This document shows positions 3,314-53,942 of a DNA stretch of 64,000 nt, one piece after another. The notes beneath the pieces were generated by a model. The model ran no database searches. It was not told where the DNA came from and saw only the letters and a program-made list of their open reading frames with translations. The number at the start of each line of letters is the position of its first letter. The stretch's first letter is position 1. Source of the DNA: a virus; the IMG/VR virus record IMGVR_UViG_3300017613_000561, positions 28,448 to 92,447 of that record; one strand, 5' to 3'. The position numbers and the translations under genes are program-made.

Positions 3314-3341
3314 TTGACAAACGTAGTACATTTGCTATAGT
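3314..3341 (+). promoter_or_regulatory. sigma70-type promoter of the phage cassette family
   Basis: TTGACA-N16-TATAGT with TGn extension, in ATTTGACAAAC context. Confidence 0.8.
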
Positions 3342-4965: not shown

Positions 4966-5899
4966 ACAAAAGATCCAGCTGTTGTTGGGGGCGTTGGGGA
5001 TAAAGGGGAGTCGGGTAGGTGACTGGATGCAAGCCAGCTGCCCGTTTGCCCCGTTCCGGCACAACAATGGGACAGATAATCATCCCAGCTGGGCCGTAAG
5101 TATTGCCGAGAACGGGGAAAGCCACCATGCCTGTTACAGCTGCCGGTCTCATGGGTCTATGTTTGAGTTGGTTATGGACCTTCGCAGGCTGTACAAGAAA
5201 AACGAAGTCCCGGCCGATGCAGATTGGAAGGCGGCGGTGGAGTTGTCTTTGGAAGACGGGGAGGATGCCTTAGTTGATGACTTTGATGATATGGAGACCA
5301 AGAAACCCACCCTTACCCTATTCCCAGAAGTATGGGTAAAAAGCTTCCTACCCGGCCACATGCATCCGTATCTGAAAGAACGTGGGATTCCACAGGGTAT
5401 AGCACATGAATTGGAGTTTAGGTATGACTCTGATAAGCAGAGGATCTGTCTGCCGTCCAGGGACAGGTGCGGCCGGTTGGTTGGGTTTTACGGTAGGGAT
5501 GTAACTGGGCTGTCTGACTTAAGGTATCTGACGTACAAGTACCAAGGGGGTTGGAACCCTCACCATTGGATTGGGGAAGACAAGGTGTCCTGGGACGACC
5601 CTGTGATTCTGACAGAAGGACCTATGGACTATGCCCGTGGGTATCTGACCACCAAGCAGATGTTGGCTTCAAACACCTCAGCTGTGACGTACAAGAAACT
5701 TGATAGGCTGAAAGATGCCCCTATGCTGATCACCATGTACGATCTGGGTACCGGTGGAGACAATGCCAGAAAGGAAATTACCAAGTGGTCCATGAAAAAC
5801 AAGGTGCCGCTGCTGAACCTGATTCCAGACACTGTGTACGGGGATTTGGGGGCGACCCCGCCAGAAAGATTCGCTGAGATGTTGGACTTAAATATTTGA
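4958..5899 (+). CDS. DNA primase (Zn-finger + TOPRIM)
   Basis: CPFAPFRH...HACYSC zinc-binding domain; YLKERGI; ILTEGPMD and MYDLGTGG TOPRIM-like motifs. Confidence 0.85.
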   Translation: MDKQKIQLLLGALGIKGSRVGDWMQASCPFAPFRHNNGTDNHPSWAVSIAENGESHHACYSCRSHGSMFELVMDLRRLYKKNEVPADADWKAAVELSLEDGEDALVDDFDDMETKKPTLTLFPEVWVKSFLPGHMHPYLKERGIPQGIAHELEFRYDSDKQRICLPSRDRCGRLVGFYGRDVTGLSDLRYLTYKYQGGWNPHHWIGEDKVSWDDPVILTEGPMDYARGYLTTKQMLASNTSAVTYKKLDRLKDAPMLITMYDLGTGGDNARKEITKWSMKNKVPLLNLIPDTVYGDLGATPPERFAEMLDLNI

Positions 5900-5924
5900 C
5901 AAACGTCTATACATTTGTTAAAGT
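5896..5924 (+). promoter_or_regulatory. sigma70-type promoter for ssb
   Basis: TTGACA-N17-TAAAGT in ATATTTGACAAAC context. Confidence 0.7.
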
Positions 5925-5969
5925 ATTAATGTCCAGATGGACAAATAATGTATTCTCTAGGAGATACCA

Positions 5970-8816: not shown

Positions 8817-9884
8817 ATGTCTAAAGCTGCTGACGTAGCCTCAGAGCTACAAAAAAAGTTGGGTGAGACCGTTGTCACCACTGGTGAGTATTTGGTGGAT
8901 GTAGAACGCATACCTACAGGGGTGTTCCCTTTTGACTTATCTTGTGGGGGTGGTTTTCCAAGGGGTAAGGTTTCCATAGTTTATGGCCCTGAATCGTCAG
9001 GTAAGACCAACTTGTTTTTGTTGTCCATTGCTTTGGAACAGAAGTTGAACCCACACATGGAAAACGTGTTTGTGGATGTGGAGAACAGCTTTGATCCCTC
9101 CTGGGCCAAGAAGATGGGGGTGGATGTAGACAAGTTGCTGGTGTTGCATCCAGATCATGCAGAGCAGGCTGTTGATATGGTGGATGCCATGTTGCAGGCT
9201 GAGGATGTGTCGTTGATAGTGGTGGATTCACTGGCAGCAATGATCCCGCTTAATGAGCAGGATAGTACGGCTGCAAAGGCGCAGGTTGGTGGGGCCAGTG
9301 CGTTGATAGGAAAGTTGATCCGTAAGGGTGTAAGTCAGCAGTCTAAAGAGAAGCGCAAGGGACATTACCCTACACTGCTATTGGTGAATCAGATCCGTAT
9401 GAAGATCGGGGTCATGTTTGGTAGCCCTGAGACCATGCCTGGAGGTAACGCTATAAAGTTTGCCTCAGGCCTTACTGCCAGGATATACGGTAAGAATGAG
9501 ATGTTGGAGAGCATATCTAAGACCATGCCTGTATTGAAGGAGACTCAGGTTGTTATCCAGAAATGGAAGGTGCCTATTGTAGCGGTGAACAGTAAGTACA
9601 AGATGTGCATGATTCCACACAATGGAATGGTGCCTGGAGATGTGAGAGATAGGGGGACAGTGGAGACGTACCTCAGGGATATGGGTCAGATCGTAAAGCA
9701 GGGGGCCAAGTGGTTTTTCTTTGGCACGGAGTATAAGACCCTGACGGCTGGGTTGGATGCCCTGTACGCAGATGAAGAGGCCCTGACCTACGCTAAGCAG
9801 ATGATTATAGATGGTATGGTTAGCAAGATTCATGGATTACCCACGGAGTTTGATGATGTGGAAGAGAAAAACAACAAAAAATAA
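8817..9884 (+). CDS. recA: RecA-family recombinase
   Basis: GPESSGKT, IVVDSLAA, NQIRMKIGVMFGSPETMPGGNAIKF motifs. Confidence 0.95.
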   Translation: MSKAADVASELQKKLGETVVTTGEYLVDVERIPTGVFPFDLSCGGGFPRGKVSIVYGPESSGKTNLFLLSIALEQKLNPHMENVFVDVENSFDPSWAKKMGVDVDKLLVLHPDHAEQAVDMVDAMLQAEDVSLIVVDSLAAMIPLNEQDSTAAKAQVGGASALIGKLIRKGVSQQSKEKRKGHYPTLLLVNQIRMKIGVMFGSPETMPGGNAIKFASGLTARIYGKNEMLESISKTMPVLKETQVVIQKWKVPIVAVNSKYKMCMIPHNGMVPGDVRDRGTVETYLRDMGQIVKQGAKWFFFGTEYKTLTAGLDALYADEEALTYAKQMIIDGMVSKIHGLPTEFDDVEEKNNKK

Positions 9885-44219: not shown

Positions 44220-44638
44220 AATACTGGGCAAAGCTATATCACATGGCTAGTAAGATTTCTGATGTGATGCACATGGGGATACATCTTAGGGCGCAAGCGG
44301 GTAAGTATCCCATAGTGGATGGCTCCATGAGTTTTAGGGTGGAAGGAATGACCGGTATGGAGCTGACTGCAAAGATCATAGGGTACAATTACTATGAGAA
44401 GGATGAGGCCCTGGATGTTCTGGTTTCAGTATCTGGTAACCTCGCTTTGTTGATACATGCCACAGAAGACGACTTGCATGTTTGGGTCATGGATATGAGT
44501 CGATTCACTGAGAAGTTTGTAAACGGAGTGAAGGCCAGTATGCTAAGTAGGAAAAGTCACGACACCATGATTACTTTGTTGAAGAAGGGCAGGGTTAATA
44601 TGTATGCCTATAAGCAGGGGGAGTGGGCCGCATGCTAA
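44216..44638 (+). CDS. Hypothetical protein
   Basis: 140-aa ORF coupled to the polymerase gene. Confidence 0.55.
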   Translation: MKYWAKLYHMASKISDVMHMGIHLRAQAGKYPIVDGSMSFRVEGMTGMELTAKIIGYNYYEKDEALDVLVSVSGNLALLIHATEDDLHVWVMDMSRFTEKFVNGVKASMLSRKSHDTMITLLKKGRVNMYAYKQGEWAAC

Positions 44639-46953
44639 GGATATGGACCTCCTCCAAGCCGGGGGACATCAAGAAGGCGGTTCTAAGCGTCCTACAGGAG
44701 CAAAAGTACCCGACCCCACATAAGATACACAGTTTGAAAACCAACGAGCCTCCATCCCTTTCCAAGGGCGAGGTTTGTTTGTCGTTAGGGGCCAAGGCTT
44801 TAGCTAAGTTGCAGGATTTGGGGCTATGTCCGAAAGGTAGGACGATCACCTCCATGCGTGGAAAGGAGATCCCGTATTCAGGTGGGGTGATCCTTGTAAC
44901 CTATGACCCCGGTATTGGGATGATAGATTACAGTAAGTACACGGATATGCAGATAGACGTAGCCATGGCTAACCGCAGGGTTATGACTGGCACGTTGGAG
45001 CCTGAGGTGGGGAACTACCGGTGGGTAAAGGACTTCAATGACCTAGTTATGCAGGTGAAGGTCAGGTACGCAGAGAAAGGCAGGCCAGTACCGTTGACCT
45101 ATGACCTGGAGACCGTTGGGCTGATTGAGTACAACGAAGAAGCCTGGATCGTCAGTATCAGTTTTACGATTGATGATGGTATGGCCGATGTCATATATTT
45201 TGAAGGCCTGCATGACCAGCCAACAAGTGGTCTGTTGGAACAGATAGACTGGTTACTGAACACCAAAGAGGTGATTACCAGAGGGGCCAATGCCAAGTTT
45301 GACCGTAGGTGGATCAAGTATAAGTGGGGCCTGGAGAACGACAATTACAAGATGGACACCACGCTGGTTGGGTCTCTGCTAGATGAGAACAGATCCAATA
45401 GTCTGAATACGCATGCCAAGGTGTACACGTCCATGGGGGGCTATGATGATGCCTTCAATGCCAAGTTTGATAAGTCCCAGATGCATAAGGTGCCAAAGAA
45501 GGATCTGCTCCCTTATGCCGGGGGGGATACTGATGCAGACTACCGTGTAGCCAATGTTATGCGTAGTAAGTTGTTGCAGGACAGTAAGTTAGCCAACTTT
45601 TATGTGAAGTTGTTGCACCCAGCCAGTATTACGATCCAGCACATGGAGGAGGTGGGTATATTGCTTGACGTTCCGTACTACATGGAACTCCAGCAGAAAT
45701 GGACAGCAGAGCTTGCTCGAGTGGAGAAGATGGCGATAAGTCTGATGTCCAGACGGTTGCAGATAAAGCACCGGGGCAATCTGAAACTCACCAGAGCTGC
45801 TTTGTTGAAGGATCACATGTTCAGTAGGCAGGGCCTGCATCTGAAACCGTACAAGGTAACGGAAAAGACTGGGCAACCCAGCACGGCAAAAGATCATCTG
45901 ATAATGTTTGCTGACAAGCCAGAAGTGGCGGCATTCTTAGAGCTGTACCAGGAGTACACCACACTATCAAAGACTCTGAATACCTACGTCACAGGGTTCT
46001 TAAAGCACCTCAGGAGTGATGGGAGGTTTCACCCCACAGGATTGCTGCACCGGGGAGACTACATGGGGTCTGGGGAATCTGGGACTGTGACCGGCCGCTT
46101 GGCCTTTAAAGATCCAGCAGCACAGACGATTCCCAAGCACACGAAGTATGCCAAGCCCCTGCGTAAGGGGTACATAGCTCCACCGGGGTTTGTTGTAGTC
46201 AACTTCGATTACAGTCAGGGGGAGTTGAAAGTAACGGCCTGTGTTGCCAATGAGCCCACCATGATACGACTGTACAAGGAGGGTATTGACCTGCATATGG
46301 TTACTGGGGGGCAGCTGAATGGCTATACCCAGGAAGATATGTTGGAGATGAAGACGAAAGATTCTGCGTTGTTCAAGGTGATTAGGCAGGGAGGCAAGGC
46401 AGGTAATTTTGGGCTGATTTATGGTATGAGTGCAGGCGGGTATCAGACCTATGCAAAGGATACGTTTTTTGTAACGCTCAATCAGGCAGAAGCCAACTAT
46501 CAGAGAGAGGAGTTTTTCAGGATGTATCCAGGGCTGGTTGAATGGCATAGGCAATACAAGGCAGGAGCCCACAGGTGGGGGTATATTAGGTCACCGCTTG
46601 GTAGAATACGGCACCTGCCGTTGATAAACAGCCCTGATCAGGCCTCTTCGTCAAAGGCTGAGAGACAATCCATCAATAGTCCTGTACAGTCTACGTTATC
46701 GGATCTAACGCAGTATGCTCTGGTGTTGTTTAATGCCAGATACGGTAGGCCGCATGGTTGCCAGTTCTTTATGACGACACATGATTCATTGGCAGCTTAT
46801 ATCCTGGAGGATGAGGTAGATGCTTGGGTACCAAGAATGACGGATATCATGGAGAATCTGCCTCTGGAAGAAACCTTTGGGTGGGAGGCCCAGCTACAGT
46901 TCACCACTGATGCTGAGATGGGACCGAACCTAGCAGAGATGGAAGAACTTTAA
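44632..46953 (+). CDS. Family A DNA polymerase with 3'-5' exonuclease
   Basis: Exonuclease YDLET, NAKFD, YAGGD; polymerase TGRL, DYSQGEL, KAGNFGLIYG, NSPVQS, HDS motifs. Confidence 0.95.
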   Translation: MLRIWTSSKPGDIKKAVLSVLQEQKYPTPHKIHSLKTNEPPSLSKGEVCLSLGAKALAKLQDLGLCPKGRTITSMRGKEIPYSGGVILVTYDPGIGMIDYSKYTDMQIDVAMANRRVMTGTLEPEVGNYRWVKDFNDLVMQVKVRYAEKGRPVPLTYDLETVGLIEYNEEAWIVSISFTIDDGMADVIYFEGLHDQPTSGLLEQIDWLLNTKEVITRGANAKFDRRWIKYKWGLENDNYKMDTTLVGSLLDENRSNSLNTHAKVYTSMGGYDDAFNAKFDKSQMHKVPKKDLLPYAGGDTDADYRVANVMRSKLLQDSKLANFYVKLLHPASITIQHMEEVGILLDVPYYMELQQKWTAELARVEKMAISLMSRRLQIKHRGNLKLTRAALLKDHMFSRQGLHLKPYKVTEKTGQPSTAKDHLIMFADKPEVAAFLELYQEYTTLSKTLNTYVTGFLKHLRSDGRFHPTGLLHRGDYMGSGESGTVTGRLAFKDPAAQTIPKHTKYAKPLRKGYIAPPGFVVVNFDYSQGELKVTACVANEPTMIRLYKEGIDLHMVTGGQLNGYTQEDMLEMKTKDSALFKVIRQGGKAGNFGLIYGMSAGGYQTYAKDTFFVTLNQAEANYQREEFFRMYPGLVEWHRQYKAGAHRWGYIRSPLGRIRHLPLINSPDQASSSKAERQSINSPVQSTLSDLTQYALVLFNARYGRPHGCQFFMTTHDSLAAYILEDEVDAWVPRMTDIMENLPLEETFGWEAQLQFTTDAEMGPNLAEMEEL

Positions 46954-47001
46954 TAGAAGTCGTAGAATCAGAAGATACCCCATAAATGGTTGGAGATAGC
47001 T

Positions 47002-48804
47002 ATGTCGGAAGATAGGTCTGAAGAAGTCAAAAGTGAAACTTCTTTGACGGTCATTAAGGCAGTAGACCCTGTGAGTTCTGCTGGTGTTCTAACTTCTAAT
47101 GCTTTGCGGGAAGAAGACGACTTTTCTGAAATGTACTTCTCAGCAGCCTCTGGGGAGGGTAATGTTATACAGCCCCCGTATGATCCAGGTACTTTGTTAC
47201 GGATGGGGACTGAGAACAATACCTTGTCCCAGTGCATTACCGCCTATGAAGTGAACATAGATGGCACCGGATTTGAGTTAGAAAACAAAGACTTGGAAGC
47301 GGAGGATGCCGAGGAAGAAAAGGATTCTGATGGCATTAAGGATTTCTTTAATGAGTGTTGGCCTAGAGAGTCCTTTGGCACTCATAGGCGCAGGCTCCGC
47401 AGGGATGTAGAGGGCAGTGGTAACGGGTACCTGGAAGTAATACGCAACGCAGCAAGTCAGTTGGTCTTTACTAGGCAGGTAGCTACTCAGACCATGAGGA
47501 TATGTAAGTTGACTGCTCCGGTGCCAGTAAAGAAAAAGATTACCCGGGCAGGTAAGGAGTTAGAAGTCACTGTAATGGTCAGGGATCGTGCCTTTGTACA
47601 GAAGGTAGCGGATAAGACAGTGTATTTTAAGGAATATGGGGCCTCCAGAGATATCAATAAAGATACTGGGGAGTGGTCTGCTCCAGGGGCAAGATTGCCA
47701 GCTGCCTTGCGAGGAACTGAGATCCTGCACTTTACTGCTTTGAAGGATGTGGATACCCCGTATGGTGTTCCACGCTGGATCAATCAGGTTCCCTCGGTAT
47801 TGGGGTCTCGTAAGGCAGAAGAGCTGAACCTGGACTTCTTTGATTATGGAGGTATCCCACCAGTTCTGCTTATGATTCAGGGTGGTCAGATGGATGAGGC
47901 CTCCAAGAAGCAGCTGGAACGGATCATGAATAAGGGGCCGAAAGCCCAGCTACGTGCTGCCATATTGGAGGTGCATTCTACCACAGGTACCCTGGATAGT
48001 AATTCTGCTGCCAAGATTGACGTTGAGAAGTTTGGGGATGAGCAGCAGAAAGATTCCATGTATGAGACCTATGATGATAGGTGTGAGCGCAGGGTGCGGT
48101 CCAGTTTCAGACTCCCGCCGCTGTTCCTGGGTAAGGCTGAGGACTACAACTATGCCACAGCCTTTGCCAGTTATACCGTGACGGAGACACAGGTGTTTCA
48201 GCCGGAGAGGGTAGAGTTTGATGAGATCGTGAACAATACTATCATGAAGGAGTTTGGGGACCATGATCTTGTATATCGGTCTTCGCCACTGGCAGTAAAT
48301 GATGCAACCATGCAGTTAGATGGGTTGGAGCACGTTAAAGAGAGCATTTCTGGTGAAGATCTGGTGGATGCCGTGAATGAGATTACCAATCAGAACTTGA
48401 AGTTTGATCAGGAAGCTGAGACTGAGCGTAAGGGTAAGGAAGAGGAAGATCGGGCTCTGGAGCATGAAGTGAAGAGAAGTATCATAGCTCCACAGGCAGG
48501 CCCCGGAACCCCGAAAGCAGCACCGGCCCCTGGTAAAGGGTCGCCAACTCCGGTAAAGAAATCAGACCATATGGAGTTGATGAAGCTGGCTTCTGAGTGG
48601 GCGGATCTGGTGGCTTCTCCAGTACAGGACAATGGGGCGTTGACTCTGACCACGCATAGGGTGTCTCTGCTGAGCAAAGAAGAGCGGGATATCCTGGATA
48701 GTATGCTGTCTATTAAGCTGTATAGTCACCCTGACAGGGATTGGGACGGAGCCATGGATGTGTGTGGCTGTGCTGCTGACCTTTTGTCTAGGGGCAAGAA
48801 GTAA
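47002..48804 (+). CDS. Portal protein (PBSX-like)
   Basis: GNGYLEVIRN, EILHF..YGVPRW, FRLPPLFLG..DYNYATA. Confidence 0.85.
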   Translation: MSEDRSEEVKSETSLTVIKAVDPVSSAGVLTSNALREEDDFSEMYFSAASGEGNVIQPPYDPGTLLRMGTENNTLSQCITAYEVNIDGTGFELENKDLEAEDAEEEKDSDGIKDFFNECWPRESFGTHRRRLRRDVEGSGNGYLEVIRNAASQLVFTRQVATQTMRICKLTAPVPVKKKITRAGKELEVTVMVRDRAFVQKVADKTVYFKEYGASRDINKDTGEWSAPGARLPAALRGTEILHFTALKDVDTPYGVPRWINQVPSVLGSRKAEELNLDFFDYGGIPPVLLMIQGGQMDEASKKQLERIMNKGPKAQLRAAILEVHSTTGTLDSNSAAKIDVEKFGDEQQKDSMYETYDDRCERRVRSSFRLPPLFLGKAEDYNYATAFASYTVTETQVFQPERVEFDEIVNNTIMKEFGDHDLVYRSSPLAVNDATMQLDGLEHVKESISGEDLVDAVNEITNQNLKFDQEAETERKGKEEEDRALEHEVKRSIIAPQAGPGTPKAAPAPGKGSPTPVKKSDHMELMKLASEWADLVASPVQDNGALTLTTHRVSLLSKEERDILDSMLSIKLYSHPDRDWDGAMDVCGCAADLLSRGKK

Positions 48805-48806
48805 TA

Positions 48807-50117
48807 ATGGCTAAGCCAGAGCTGCTGCTATCTCTGGAGGGAGCCCTTAACGACAAGCTTGAGGGTAAGTGGGACAAGGTCGCTCGTAGATTGGCTACGC
48901 GGCTGGTAAAAGCCCTGGAAGAAGACGATCTGGCTAAGGTAGATAAGCTGATCAATGAGGCTAGGACAGCCAATCTGCATAAGGGGGAGCACAAGTACAT
49001 CCGGTATATAGGCCTGTCTTCCATGCTGTTCGGGGCCTCCTTAGTATCCGGTACTGCCAAGAAGTCCTCTATTGCCAAGGCTAAGAAGCCGCCACAGATT
49101 CTAGTTCCAGCTGTTAAGCAGATGAAAGTTATGCTGGAAGAGGGGGACAAGACCCTTAGAAAAGAACTGGGGAGGATGGTCCAGAAAGCTATCGAAGTGC
49201 GGGACTCTAATCAGGTACAGAAAGCTGCCAAGGTTAGAACCATGGAAGAGATAGTCAAGATGGGTACAGGTAGGGTAGGTAAAGGCATTATCAACATAGC
49301 TGCAAGCCTGCATACTTCCAGATTGTCAGCTTATGGGTTCTGTGTAGAAGCGCAGGTTACCGGCATTACCCGCTACGGTATTAATGAGCAGTTGGACAAC
49401 CGTATTTGTCCTGTATGTCGTGAGATGCACGGTAAGACATTTGAGGTTCAGCAGGCGTATACCCGCCTGGATAGTCTGTTACGGGTAGAGAACACAGAGG
49501 ATTTAAAGCAGCTGGCCCCTTGGCCCAAGCAGGATAAGAACAGCCTGGAAAGGTTCAAGCGCATGAATGAAAGTGATCTTGTATCCGCAGGTTGGAGTAT
49601 TCCGCCATTTCATCCTGGGTGTCGTGGGTTATTGTCCAAGACTATGGATGTCCCAGCATTGCCTGCTGCAGCTGCAGATGTGCCTGTATCTACGGATATA
49701 GCTGGCGTAGACCTTGGTACCCCAACAGGAATCGTATCCTCCGGGGTTATAGATTTAGCTGTAGAGGGCGCGACCAAGACCTTTAGTATGCCTAAGAGGG
49801 CGATAACTTCTGGTGACAAGCTGGTACTGGTGGATACTTTAGAGCTGGATAAGATCTGGAAGAAGGACAAGGATTATTACATTGGTGTGGGCGGAGAAGG
49901 GGGCATCAGTGGTAGGTACGCAAGGTTTGAGAAGTACCTGGATGAGCATGACGATATCCTGGTTTCAGAACTTGGGATCAATGAATATGGCATGTCGTTT
50001 ACCAATGGAAGACATAGAGCCGCTGTCCTGAGAGACAAGGGGATGATATACCTGCCGGTAGCTATGGATGATGAAAGTATCCAGTGGGCCAAGAGTCTGA
50101 AACTAATTGAAGATTAA
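48807..50117 (+). CDS. MuF/SPP1 gp7-like head morphogenesis protein with C-terminal extension
   Basis: DNRICPVCREMHGK..PPFHPGCR; after a linker, FTNGRHRAAVL..G..LPV. Confidence 0.8.
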   Translation: MAKPELLLSLEGALNDKLEGKWDKVARRLATRLVKALEEDDLAKVDKLINEARTANLHKGEHKYIRYIGLSSMLFGASLVSGTAKKSSIAKAKKPPQILVPAVKQMKVMLEEGDKTLRKELGRMVQKAIEVRDSNQVQKAAKVRTMEEIVKMGTGRVGKGIINIAASLHTSRLSAYGFCVEAQVTGITRYGINEQLDNRICPVCREMHGKTFEVQQAYTRLDSLLRVENTEDLKQLAPWPKQDKNSLERFKRMNESDLVSAGWSIPPFHPGCRGLLSKTMDVPALPAAAADVPVSTDIAGVDLGTPTGIVSSGVIDLAVEGATKTFSMPKRAITSGDKLVLVDTLELDKIWKKDKDYYIGVGGEGGISGRYARFEKYLDEHDDILVSELGINEYGMSFTNGRHRAAVLRDKGMIYLPVAMDDESIQWAKSLKLIED

Positions 50118-50129
50118 TGAAATAAACCT

Positions 50130-50157
50130 TTGACATACGTTACTCCCCCAGTATAAT
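50130..50157 (+). promoter_or_regulatory. Near-consensus sigma70 promoter for the non-coding unit
   Basis: TTGACA-N16-TATAAT. Confidence 0.8.
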
Positions 50158-50162
50158 ACGTC

Positions 50163-50990
50163 CCATCGCTTAGGAACATATTGTCAGGTAACTGGCAGAA
50201 AGGGGTGAAGGCAACGCAGCCCCGGGTGTTTCGACATCCTATCCAAGCAAGCCGAGGTGGTGGGGCAAGCCCCATAATTCGATGCACTATCGGAGATATC
50301 TGACGAGTAATTAGGCAGAAGTAGCCCATAATAACCAAAGGGGCCGCTGTGAAGTGATCTGCTAAAAGCAAGTCGGGGACACCAAAGGGTAGTCATATAG
50401 TCTGAGTCGGTAGATAAGGGCATATGGTAGTTGAGGCGAACAGGGCGAAGGTTCAATGTTCGTTGAAAACAGACAATTAGCAGACATGTGAAAGTCATTA
50501 GGTGTGTGGTATTTTGGCCCCGAAAGGGATTGAAGCCACTGACAGACCCACATCTTGGTTGTATTATGTAGCTCATCTGGTAGAGCTACGGCCTTTGAAG
50601 CCGTTGGTAACTGGTTCGATCCCAGTCGTAAACAAGTGAAAGAGGTCTGTCGGTGTTGGATTAAAGTGGCTTAATGCTGTACCACCTCGGTGGAATACAG
50701 TGCCATGACACCTCACAAGGTAGATTGGTTTGGCTAGAGGTAGCACTTTGGGAGCGGCCACTCTCGGGGGTATACTGAAAGTTGAGTGATTCAACAGTAT
50801 GAAGGTACCGCCACCTTCTAAAAAAAGGCAGTCATGCTAGGTACACCTCTGCACTTCGGTGGGGGGTGTGGATAACTGAAGAACTCCAGGTTGGTAGCCT
50901 GTAGGTAATGTCAGTAAAGTTTAGTACGAGAGGTTGTAGTCTCAGACCGATCAAATCGAAACCCTGATCTCACAAGGATCGGGGTTTTAT
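50163..50990 (+). ncRNA. Large structured ncRNA candidate (GOLLD-like)
   Basis: ~830 nt with no + strand ORF of 60 aa or more, bounded by a promoter and a terminator; CCC-GAAA-GGG (50519-50528) and CAC-TTCG-GTG (50852-50861) tetraloop hairpins; embedded tRNA-like element. Confidence 0.6.
50562..50634 (+). tRNA. tRNA-Gln(UUG)-like element, imperfect acceptor stem, no encoded CCA
   Basis: D arm GCTC/GAGC, anticodon stem ACGGC/GCCGT with loop CT-TTG-AA, T arm ACTGG-TTCGATC-CCAGT. Confidence 0.7.
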
Positions 50991-50993
50991 TTT
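50959..50993 (+). terminator. Intrinsic terminator
   Basis: aaaccctgatc-tcacaag-gatcggggttt followed by TATTTT. Confidence 0.85.
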
Positions 50994-50999
50994 GCCTAT

Positions 51000-51122
51000 G
51001 CACTTAAGTGCGTCTCCTTGCATTTCGGAGCACTCACAACCCCCCAACCCTAAAACATAAGCCCACAAGCAGCACTTAAGTGCGTAGAAAGTCTTGCATT
51101 CGTTGGTTAGAGGTCATATTCT
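51000..51122 (+). promoter_or_regulatory. Head-operon promoter region with two GCACTTAAGTGC sites
   Basis: Sites at 51000 and 51072; TTGCAT(51094)-N17-TATTCT(51117). Confidence 0.55.
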
Positions 51123-51128
51123 CACCTC

Positions 51129-51704
51129 ATGCGGGTACTTAAATACGATGACGAGAAACAGATTGTCTACGGGGAAGTTTATGCCCCGGGGGTACCCGAT
51201 GCCCATGGAGATTTCATGACTGAAGACTCCATCCTGGATATGGCCCATAATTTTCTAGCCAATAACCGTGTTGAGAAGATTGATAGAAATCACGATCATA
51301 ATCAGATCGATGCCGTTGTTGTGGAATCGTTTATTGCAAGACCGGGAGATCCTGACTTCATTGTTGGAAGTTGGGTAGCTGCGGTTAAAGTACACGATCC
51401 TGAAACTTGGGGGCAGATCAAAAAGGGGGACCTGAATGGGTTCTCTTTGGATGGTGCAGCTAAAGGTTCAATAACGGAACTAGAGGTTGAAATCCCTGAC
51501 TTTGTGGAAGGACGCACTACCAAAGCAGAAGATGACCATGACCACACTTTTAAAGTCGCATTTGATGACGAAGGTAATTTTGTGGGTGGTGAGACTGACG
51601 AGGTGGCCGGACATATCCATGCCATAGTTAAGGGCACTGTAACCGAAGAAGCGGGTGGGCACAACCATAGATTCTCATACATAGAGGCACTGATTGATGG
51701 CTAG
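51129..51704 (+). CDS. XkdF-like prohead protease
   Basis: QIVYGEVYAP..DAHGD..H..VVESFIA..GSW..GDLNGFS. Confidence 0.85.
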   Translation: MRVLKYDDEKQIVYGEVYAPGVPDAHGDFMTEDSILDMAHNFLANNRVEKIDRNHDHNQIDAVVVESFIARPGDPDFIVGSWVAAVKVHDPETWGQIKKGDLNGFSLDGAAKGSITELEVEIPDFVEGRTTKAEDDHDHTFKVAFDDEGNFVGGETDEVAGHIHAIVKGTVTEEAGGHNHRFSYIEALIDG

Positions 51705-52949: not shown

Positions 52950-53942
52950 ATGAGTTCAAATAAAGAAATTATTCAGAAGGCGGATTTCGCACTAGCTGAC
53001 CTCGCTTCTGGTGGATTGCTGAACGATGAACAGGCCAATAAGTTCATCCGTGACCTGCTGGTACAGCCGACCATTCTGAAACAGTCCCGTACCGTTGTTA
53101 TGGGTGGGCCTAGCCGACAGATCAACAAGATCGGATTCGGTAAGCGTATCCTCCGTGCGGCCACTTCAGGTACTGCCCTGGACACCGCTGCTATTACCGG
53201 AGCTTTCGATCCTGCGGCTGAAGCAACTGCCCGTGCTAAGCCTGTAACCGATCAGGTCCTGTTGAACACCAAGGAAGTGATCGCTGAGGTTCGTCTGCCT
53301 TATGACGTAATCGAAGACAACATTGAGCGGGGCAGTATCAATGCTGCCGGTGCCAACTCCAGCCCACAGCCTCTGCAGGGTGGTTTGAAAGACACTCTGG
53401 TAGCCATGATCGCTGAACGTGCGGCTCTGGACCTGGAAGAGCTGGCTATTAAAGGTGACGAGTCTCTGGGTGCTGCTGACCCATACCTGGATCTGGTTGA
53501 TGGTTATCTGGTGCAGGCGACATCCAACACCGTTAATGTTGGTGACAACATTTCCCGTACTGCGTTCAAGAATGGTCTCATCACCATGCCTGACCAGTAC
53601 CTGAGAAACCGGTCTGCTCTGCGTCATTATGTTTCGCATGATAACGAGATCCAGTATCGGGATACTCTGGCTCAGCGTGAAACCGCTGGCGGTGACGGTA
53701 TCATCCAGGGTTACGCCCCTGTGTATGCCTTCGGCACCATGGTAGAGCCCGTATCTCTGATGCCTGAGGCTAACGGTCTGTTCACCTTCCCGAAGAACCT
53801 GATTTTCGGTATCCAACGTAAGATCAGCATCGAAGTGGACAAGATCATCACTGAGCGTCAGTTTGTTATCGTCCTGACCGCCCGTATCGACTTCAAGATT
53901 GAAGAAGAGAACGCGGTAGTCAAGTACACTAACATCACCTGA
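52950..53942 (+). CDS. Major capsid protein (HK97 fold, XkdG-like)
   Basis: GGLLNDEQANKFI..IEDNIE..DLEELAIKGD..MPDQY..NLIFGI; strong RBS and codon bias. Confidence 0.9.
   Translation: MSSNKEIIQKADFALADLASGGLLNDEQANKFIRDLLVQPTILKQSRTVVMGGPSRQINKIGFGKRILRAATSGTALDTAAITGAFDPAAEATARAKPVTDQVLLNTKEVIAEVRLPYDVIEDNIERGSINAAGANSSPQPLQGGLKDTLVAMIAERAALDLEELAIKGDESLGAADPYLDLVDGYLVQATSNTVNVGDNISRTAFKNGLITMPDQYLRNRSALRHYVSHDNEIQYRDTLAQRETAGGDGIIQGYAPVYAFGTMVEPVSLMPEANGLFTFPKNLIFGIQRKISIEVDKIITERQFVIVLTARIDFKIEEENAVVKYTNIT

Follow-up and report, generated by a model that had tools for sequence, protein, structure and literature searches.

Which kind of gene fills the 1011 nt between the genes of a MuF-like minor head protein and a prohead protease in this phage, and does this position among head genes say something about its role? 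The gap (50118-51128) is the largest non-coding one in the 92,447-nt virus record, the second and third largest gaps of the whole genome being 449 and 420 nt long. The IMG/VR virus contig is 100% complete according to CheckV, and the locus has head genes on either side. All coordinates are those of the window, which is the whole 64,000-nt stretch of DNA that was analysed (positions 28,448 to 92,447 of record IMGVR_UViG_3300017613_000561), unless another locus is named. The first-pass annotation had described a gene-free stretch of about 1 kb, filled by a structured, GOLLD-like noncoding RNA of about 830 nt having its own TTGACA-N16-TATAAT promoter and terminator, GNRA- and UUCG-capped hairpins, a 3' segment GGTTGTAGTCTCAGACC and an internal tRNA-like cloverleaf. 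These elements are all recovered in the present analysis, and the RNA is very probably a divergent, genuine GOLLD (RF02032) gene, present as an independent cassette in an uncultured, probably marine, 92-kb tailed phage.

GOLLD RNA (Rfam entry RF02032), reportedly described by Weinberg et al. in 2009, is among the largest noncoding RNAs of bacteria and phages.

The transcription unit and its surroundings

The genes around this locus are ordered as DNA polymerase, portal, MuF-like, GOLLD, protease, a 402-aa protein and capsid (Table 1), and the capsid gene resembles the capsid genes of Stenotrophomonas, Rhizobium and Vibrio siphophages. The DNA polymerase gene (44623-46953, family-A-like; PHROG 17, E 4e-107) has the portal gene directly downstream; the replication and head genes therefore abut, with no terminase between them. 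In a seawater DNA run, a single 202-nt contig is identical to 49999-50200, besides tRNA-only pieces of other organisms. This contig is a weak hint of a marine habitat and of a genuine MuF-to-GOLLD junction, the run possibly being the source sample. The phage that carries the RNA is an uncultured, tailed and probably marine phage of 92 kb.

The promoter (TTGACATAC...TATAAT) is the sole perfect sigma-70 match in the 92-kb genome, and the start of the RNA is predicted near 50164. Six promoters of the TTGACAAAC-N-TATAGT form match the consensus at 11 of the 12 positions (window positions 3314, 25943, 27408, 29757, 34439 and 37218), all of them being plus-strand promoters that precede the structural module. 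This extended form has a close variant in the GOLLD promoter. The promoter and the terminator are thus both present as had been proposed, with a 12/12 match and a 13-bp stem, respectively, and this own early-type promoter, together with the terminator, places the cassette outside the head operon. Flanking direct repeats of at least 8 nt were sought around the cassette and none were found.

The minimum free energy of the 830-nt RNA is -286 kcal/mol, compared with -253 +/- 6 kcal/mol for 20 dinucleotide-preserving shuffles (z = -5.4), which indicates structure in excess of chance. When reading the sequence, GNRA loops are found at 50185-95 (GUAA) and 50518-28 (GAAA), UUCG loops at 50226-37 and 50851-62, and the segment GGTTGTAGTCTCAGACC at 50932-50948.

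The palindrome GCACTTAAGTGC, which occurs genome-wide, has two copies (51000-51011 and 51072-51083) that follow the GOLLD terminator and precede the protease gene, each with CTTGCATT within 5-10 nt downstream (51017-24 and 51093-51100). The GCACTTAAGTGC/CTTGCATT pair is a candidate for a conserved late promoter or regulator site.

Table 1. Features of the GOLLD locus and of its neighbouring genes (window coordinates)
Feature	Position	Strand	Basis or remark
Portal gene	46990-48804		
MuF-like minor head gene	48807-50117		5' neighbour of gene-free stretch
Sigma-70-type promoter, TTGACA-16-TATAAT	50130-50157	+	12/12 consensus match
GOLLD 5' domain, reduced, ~320 nt	50179-50498	+	nhmmer profile and consensus helices
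First hairpin of conserved 3' domain (P13/P14)	50499-50556	+	RF02032 positions 1-63
8-bp helix GACAGACC / GGUCUGUC	50541-48 / 50644-51	+	Perfect complement
tRNA-Gln(UUG)-like cloverleaf	50562-50634	+	Rfam tRNA 50.6 bits, 50564-50631; ARAGORN 50563-50633
GUGA in J13/15, L20 partner	50636-39	+	Complementary to UCAC 50713-16
Conserved GOLLD 3' core	50644-50948	+	RF02032 match
J17/18, UAAAGUGGCUUAAU	50662-75	+	
L20, UCAC	50713-16	+	
Single P21 sub-hairpin, palindromic loop CGGCCA	50750-65, loop 50755-60	+	
P22 pseudoknot	50801-29	+	
GUGGAUAA	50868-75	+	
Last hairpin, loop GUAGUCUCA	50932-48	+	
Intrinsic terminator	50958-50993	+	13-bp stem 50958-50988, 5 G-C pairs, 5-nt loop, then T run
XkdF/S78-type prohead protease gene	51129-51704		3' neighbour of gene-free stretch
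Capsid gene	52950-53942		

Relationship to the GOLLD family

When using cmscan, the complete RF02032 (GOLLD) model (1-416 of 416) aligns to 50499-50948 with 127.7 bits (E 5.4e-35), and the same match is obtained when searching the whole genome (E 8.5e-37); ROOL and other large-RNA models have no match in 49900-51300 up to E = 10. After threading the RF02032 structure on the window, 80 of the 91 aligned model pairs are canonical. The score is below the Rfam gathering cut-off of 150 bits, which is an operational annotation threshold and no structural feature, and a gathering-mode scan reports the tRNA only. The low score is due to the deletion of a sub-hairpin of the P21 branch, to a shifted P22 pairing and to large insertions, which are, relative to RF02032, the cloverleaf and an extended loop (50886-50908). 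The P22 hairpin fits the model poorly and requires a re-registered pairing; it is better described by GAAGG/CCUUC (50801-18), with a pseudoknot between GCC (50810-12) and GGC (50827-29). In the P21 branch, the second sub-hairpin (P21b-like) is absent, a one-hairpin form that is shared by some 21 of the 104 GOLLDs sampled; the retained sub-hairpin has a palindromic loop, CGGCCA, that recurs in other GOLLDs. The P numbering used here is our own mapping, inferred from PMC12286853 and PMC12990946.

The junction and loop motifs of the family are all found, being the J17/18 motif AAAG..GCUUAAU, GUGGAUAA, GUA(A/G)UCUCA (50935-45) and the GNRA-capped first hairpin (50522-25). In this first hairpin of the 3' domain, which has the GAAA tetraloop at 50522-50525, 13 of the 13 consensus pairs of the inner helix are formed. 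The linker is closed by the GACAGACC/GGUCUGUC helix, which makes a pseudoknot with the outer stem of the first hairpin; in the 13-sequence alignment described below, its counterpart covaries, with GC, AU, CG and UA types being seen. The L20 and J13/15 sites also covary across 104 GOLLDs (GC/GC, CCC/GG, CUC/GAG and CAC/GUG), and the window keeps their complementarity by the double compensatory change CAC/GUG. [quoted passage not shown] As judged from the sequence, the kissing pair, the closing helix and the P21 loop argue for a working, assembling RNA over a decaying copy.

From IMG/VR, 119 GOLLD loci were gathered by means of a degenerate 3' motif. An alignment of 13 sequences was made of the window and the 12 IMG/VR GOLLDs that have a linker tRNA and score 159-213 bits, using MAFFT, with register slips being resolved by reading the sequence. 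RNAalifold finds 147 consensus pairs over both domains of these 13 sequences, and 114 of these pairs have compensatory changes. The window forms nearly all of the 3'-domain consensus pairs and, in nine 5'-domain consensus helices, 41 of the 44 pairs; one further short helix, the tenth, lies in the lineage-specific centre of this domain and is lost, one of its four pairs being present. An nhmmer profile made of the 12 other 5' domains, with the window excluded, matches 50380-50505 (E 3e-5) and 50179-50258 (E 0.041). These two matches are collinear and are the sole ones in the 92-kb genome. The profile matches and the preserved helices imply that the 5' half is GOLLD too. The middle of the 5' domain (~120 nt, 50259-50379) is lineage-specific and aligns to nothing; the 5' region is less conserved within the family (PMC12286853).

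None of the sampled GOLLDs has more than 55% identity to this RNA, and no close homologue was found, such that the covariation supports the structure at the family level only. When comparing 50100-51010 with cultured phages by blastn, only tRNA-sized matches are obtained. An exact search for the 3' 17-mer in IMG/VR returns nothing, and neither does a metagenome pattern search for GOLLDs having the same CAC/GUG kissing pair.

Two other views of what the gap encodes have to be considered. The first-pass annotation had left room for a new class of large phage RNA, which would be GOLLD-like only at its 3' end, and the score under the gathering threshold, the low identity to the sampled GOLLDs and the unalignable middle of the 5' domain are in line with this. 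It is nevertheless extremely improbable, because RF02032 is matched end to end (E 5e-35), the 5' domain is recognised independently by the GOLLD 5' profile, and the family-specific junction motifs and the kissing-loop covariation are present; on these grounds the new class is rejected. Moreover, the missing sub-hairpin is also absent from about 20% of the accepted GOLLDs, and the solved structure of the Streptococcus agalactiae GOLLD is likewise without it (PMC12990946). That the gap codes for one or more small proteins, with the RNA features being incidental, is scarcely conceivable. Mechanical ORFs do exist in the gap, the two longest (130 and 73 aa) being on the minus strand and those on the plus strand having only 34-45 aa. 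However, the 130-aa and 73-aa ORFs have no match in a PHROG search, they are antisense whereas 105 of the 120 likely genes of the whole genome are on the plus strand, and the covarying RNA structure accounts for the region pair by pair. Clearly, the GOLLD assignment of the first-pass annotation agrees with the RF02032 match, with the 5'-domain homology and with the covariation.

The linker cloverleaf and the relatives of the phage

The variable linker J13/15 is filled by the cloverleaf, which is the sole tRNA-like gene of the genome and has no adjacent tRNA array. Rfam and ARAGORN both identify it, the latter as tRNA-Gln(UUG); its Rfam score of 50.6 bits compares with a cut-off of 29 for the tRNA model (RF00005), of which positions 3-68 only are covered. 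The D, anticodon and T arms are intact and canonical. The acceptor stem has five of its seven pairs, with U.C at 1-72 and A.A at 2-71 (the top of the stem), and CCA is not encoded. A linker tRNA is found at the same place in 13 of the 102 other IMG/VR GOLLDs that have enough upstream sequence, and the distance from its 3' end to the end of the 3' motif is 308-328 nt in these 13 GOLLDs and 312 nt here. Embedded tRNAs and pseudo-tRNAs in J13/15 have already been published (PMC12990946, PMC6582537, PMC12286853). All seven acceptor pairs are formed in 2 of the 14 embedded cloverleaves, versus 395 of the 444 free tRNAs from these loci (Fisher p 8e-10, obtained with a generous register search and inflated, several of the embedded tRNAs sharing ancestry). 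The intact elbow and anticodon arm, combined with the frayed acceptor stem, favour a tethered tRNA mimic, and from these sequence features the cloverleaf is more likely such a mimic than a released, chargeable tRNA.

Odd anticodons are predicted by ARAGORN for linker tRNAs of other GOLLDs, being UCA and CUA, which read the opal and amber codons, respectively, and one of four bases in a loop that is enlarged; these are at the IMG/VR loci L020 (11095-11166), L041 (6492-6564) and L080 (2555-2626). In L020, a two-piece (permuted, alpha-type) tmRNA gene is located ~2 kb upstream of the GOLLD (8908-9279, Rfam 80 bits).

The closest relative that was found (L201), an 88-kb contig in the bin of a Helicobacteraceae MAG, has 57% identity in the MuF protein. 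It has the same portal-MuF-protease order, with a spacer of 366 nt between the MuF and protease genes. An Rfam scan of this spacer gives no match, and an RF02032 match that was sought throughout the MAG of L201 was not found. The spacer and the window are alike 3' of the terminator, both having GCACTTAAGTGC and then CTTGCA just before the protease gene; in L201 there is one copy of the palindrome (5923-5934). The L201 spacer also has, in place of the GOLLD cassette of the window, an ORF of ~59 aa (5620-5799) that is rich in acidic residues. Motif and Rfam scans of 80 more distant MuF loci find no GOLLD at this position, and the spacers between MuF and the next ORF are mostly 30-350 nt. A search for a relative with the protease protein as the query gave none. 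Since GOLLD is missing from L201 and from the 80 MuF loci, the cassette looks like an accessory (moron-like) insertion at a permissive operon boundary rather than a part of head assembly.

It is possible that the unit serves mainly as a tRNA-Gln gene, the remaining RNA being a precursor or scaffold that releases a CAA decoder for the phage. The score of the cloverleaf, well above the tRNA cut-off, its canonical anticodon, D and T loops and its being the only tRNA of the genome fit with this, as does the published picture of linked tRNAs that are exposed on opening of the cage (PMC12286853). This reading is nevertheless considered unlikely, in view of the two mismatches at the top of the acceptor stem and the absence of an encoded CCA, such defects being seen in 12 of the 14 embedded cloverleaves versus 11% of the free tRNAs. 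The glutamine codon usage also points away from it: CAG is preferred over CAA (614 versus 186 overall, 141 versus 27 in the late genes), and a codon-supply role for a tRNA-Gln(UUG) is therefore not obvious. In addition, the pseudo-tRNA of a Mycobacterium GOLLD was not detectably expressed (PMC6582537). It had also been hinted that the RNA acts in head assembly, and it could be imagined that it enters the proheads, given that it lies between the MuF and protease genes. Its position amid the portal, MuF-like, protease and capsid genes is the one point in favour, and this role is very improbable: the nearest relative keeps the head gene order without a GOLLD, none of the 80 MuF loci has one at this site, and tRNA genes surround more than half of the other GOLLD loci. 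The hint is therefore left unsupported by these comparisons, and a tethered mimic, carried by an accessory cassette, is the preferred reading.

A bolder extension of the tethered mimic, regarded as improbable, is that the linker cloverleaves, as present in about one-eighth of the phage GOLLDs, are permanently tethered, non-chargeable mimics, of which about a dozen would be displayed or hidden per cage. If this is true, the caged mimics could, for example, serve as decoys or sponges, the target being a host factor or defence nuclease for which the tRNA elbow and anticodon arm are the recognition elements. This phage would then have the minimal form of such a system, because it has no other tRNA and its RNA comes from its strongest promoter.

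The predicted cage and the comparison with known systems

By homology to the solved GOLLDs (PMC12286853, PMC12990946), the RNA would fold into two domains, a 5' cap and a 3' ring, and copies of it would join into a closed cage of 10 to 14 subunits via the L20-J13/15 kissing pair and the palindromic loop CGGCCA. The linker would face the interior of this cage, and the tRNA-like domain with it. On the basis of this homology, a multimeric cage that encloses the tRNA-like domain is therefore to be expected. Transcription would start from the strongest sigma-70-type promoter of the phage, probably by the host RNA polymerase and independently of the surrounding head genes.

GOLLD RNAs are now known to build RNA-only cages, and the copy in the window adds little that is new in kind. 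It does indicate that real GOLLDs exist under the Rfam cut-off, where routine annotation misses them, and that a GOLLD can be a cassette of its own, with a strong promoter and at a distance from tRNA arrays; this cassette was gained in a phage lineage whose nearest relative is without it. Taken together with the 13 other cases, the embedded cloverleaves are systematically defective in the acceptor stem, which provides a testable handle on the cage cargo. The particular properties of this copy are its sub-threshold score, the lack of P21b and of a tRNA array, the strongest promoter of the phage and the absence of the cassette from the nearest relative.

ROOL RNA, which forms an octameric cage (PMC12286853), is likewise a large, phage-borne, cage-forming RNA that is often near tRNAs, but it is unrelated in sequence and fold, the ROOL model having no match at E <= 10. 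Compared with the RF02032 GOLLDs, the window has a score below the cut-off and is not beside a tRNA array. The GOLLD of S. agalactiae (700 nt, 12-mer, PDB entry: 9L0R; PMC12990946), when compared by its description, is similarly reduced, being without P21b and parts of the 5' cap, and it is also close in size, as the RNA of the window has ~710 nt when the tRNA insert is subtracted. It differs in being a bacterial or prophage copy from Firmicutes, for which no embedded tRNA is reported.

The env-38 GOLLD, which forms a 14-mer cage (PDB entry: 9MEE; Kretsch et al. 2025, PMC12286853), shares with the window the two-domain architecture of ~800 nt, the 3' helices and junction motifs, the L20-J13/15 kissing pair, the variable linker after the first 3' hairpin and the phage origin, and env-38 is also from a marine sample. 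The 5' domain is shorter in the window (~320 nt versus 420 nt in env-38), the second P21 sub-hairpin is absent from the window, and the linker is a 73-nt cloverleaf instead of the 42-nt disordered linker of env-38. With respect to the linker, the closest parallel is described for the Mycobacterium/Mycolicibacterium GOLLDs, which have a tRNA-Phe or pseudo-tRNA in J13/15 (PMC6582537; PMC12990946, citing Morgado et al. 2020). There too, a tRNA-shaped element is in the same linker, and it was judged to be a pseudo-tRNA that is not detectably expressed alone. These copies are part of large tRNA arrays, acquired horizontally, that have an HNH endonuclease, whereas the cloverleaf of the window is the sole tRNA-like gene. 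A GOLLD with a pseudo-tRNA-like domain in J13/15 is a known arrangement in a known family, and no new class.
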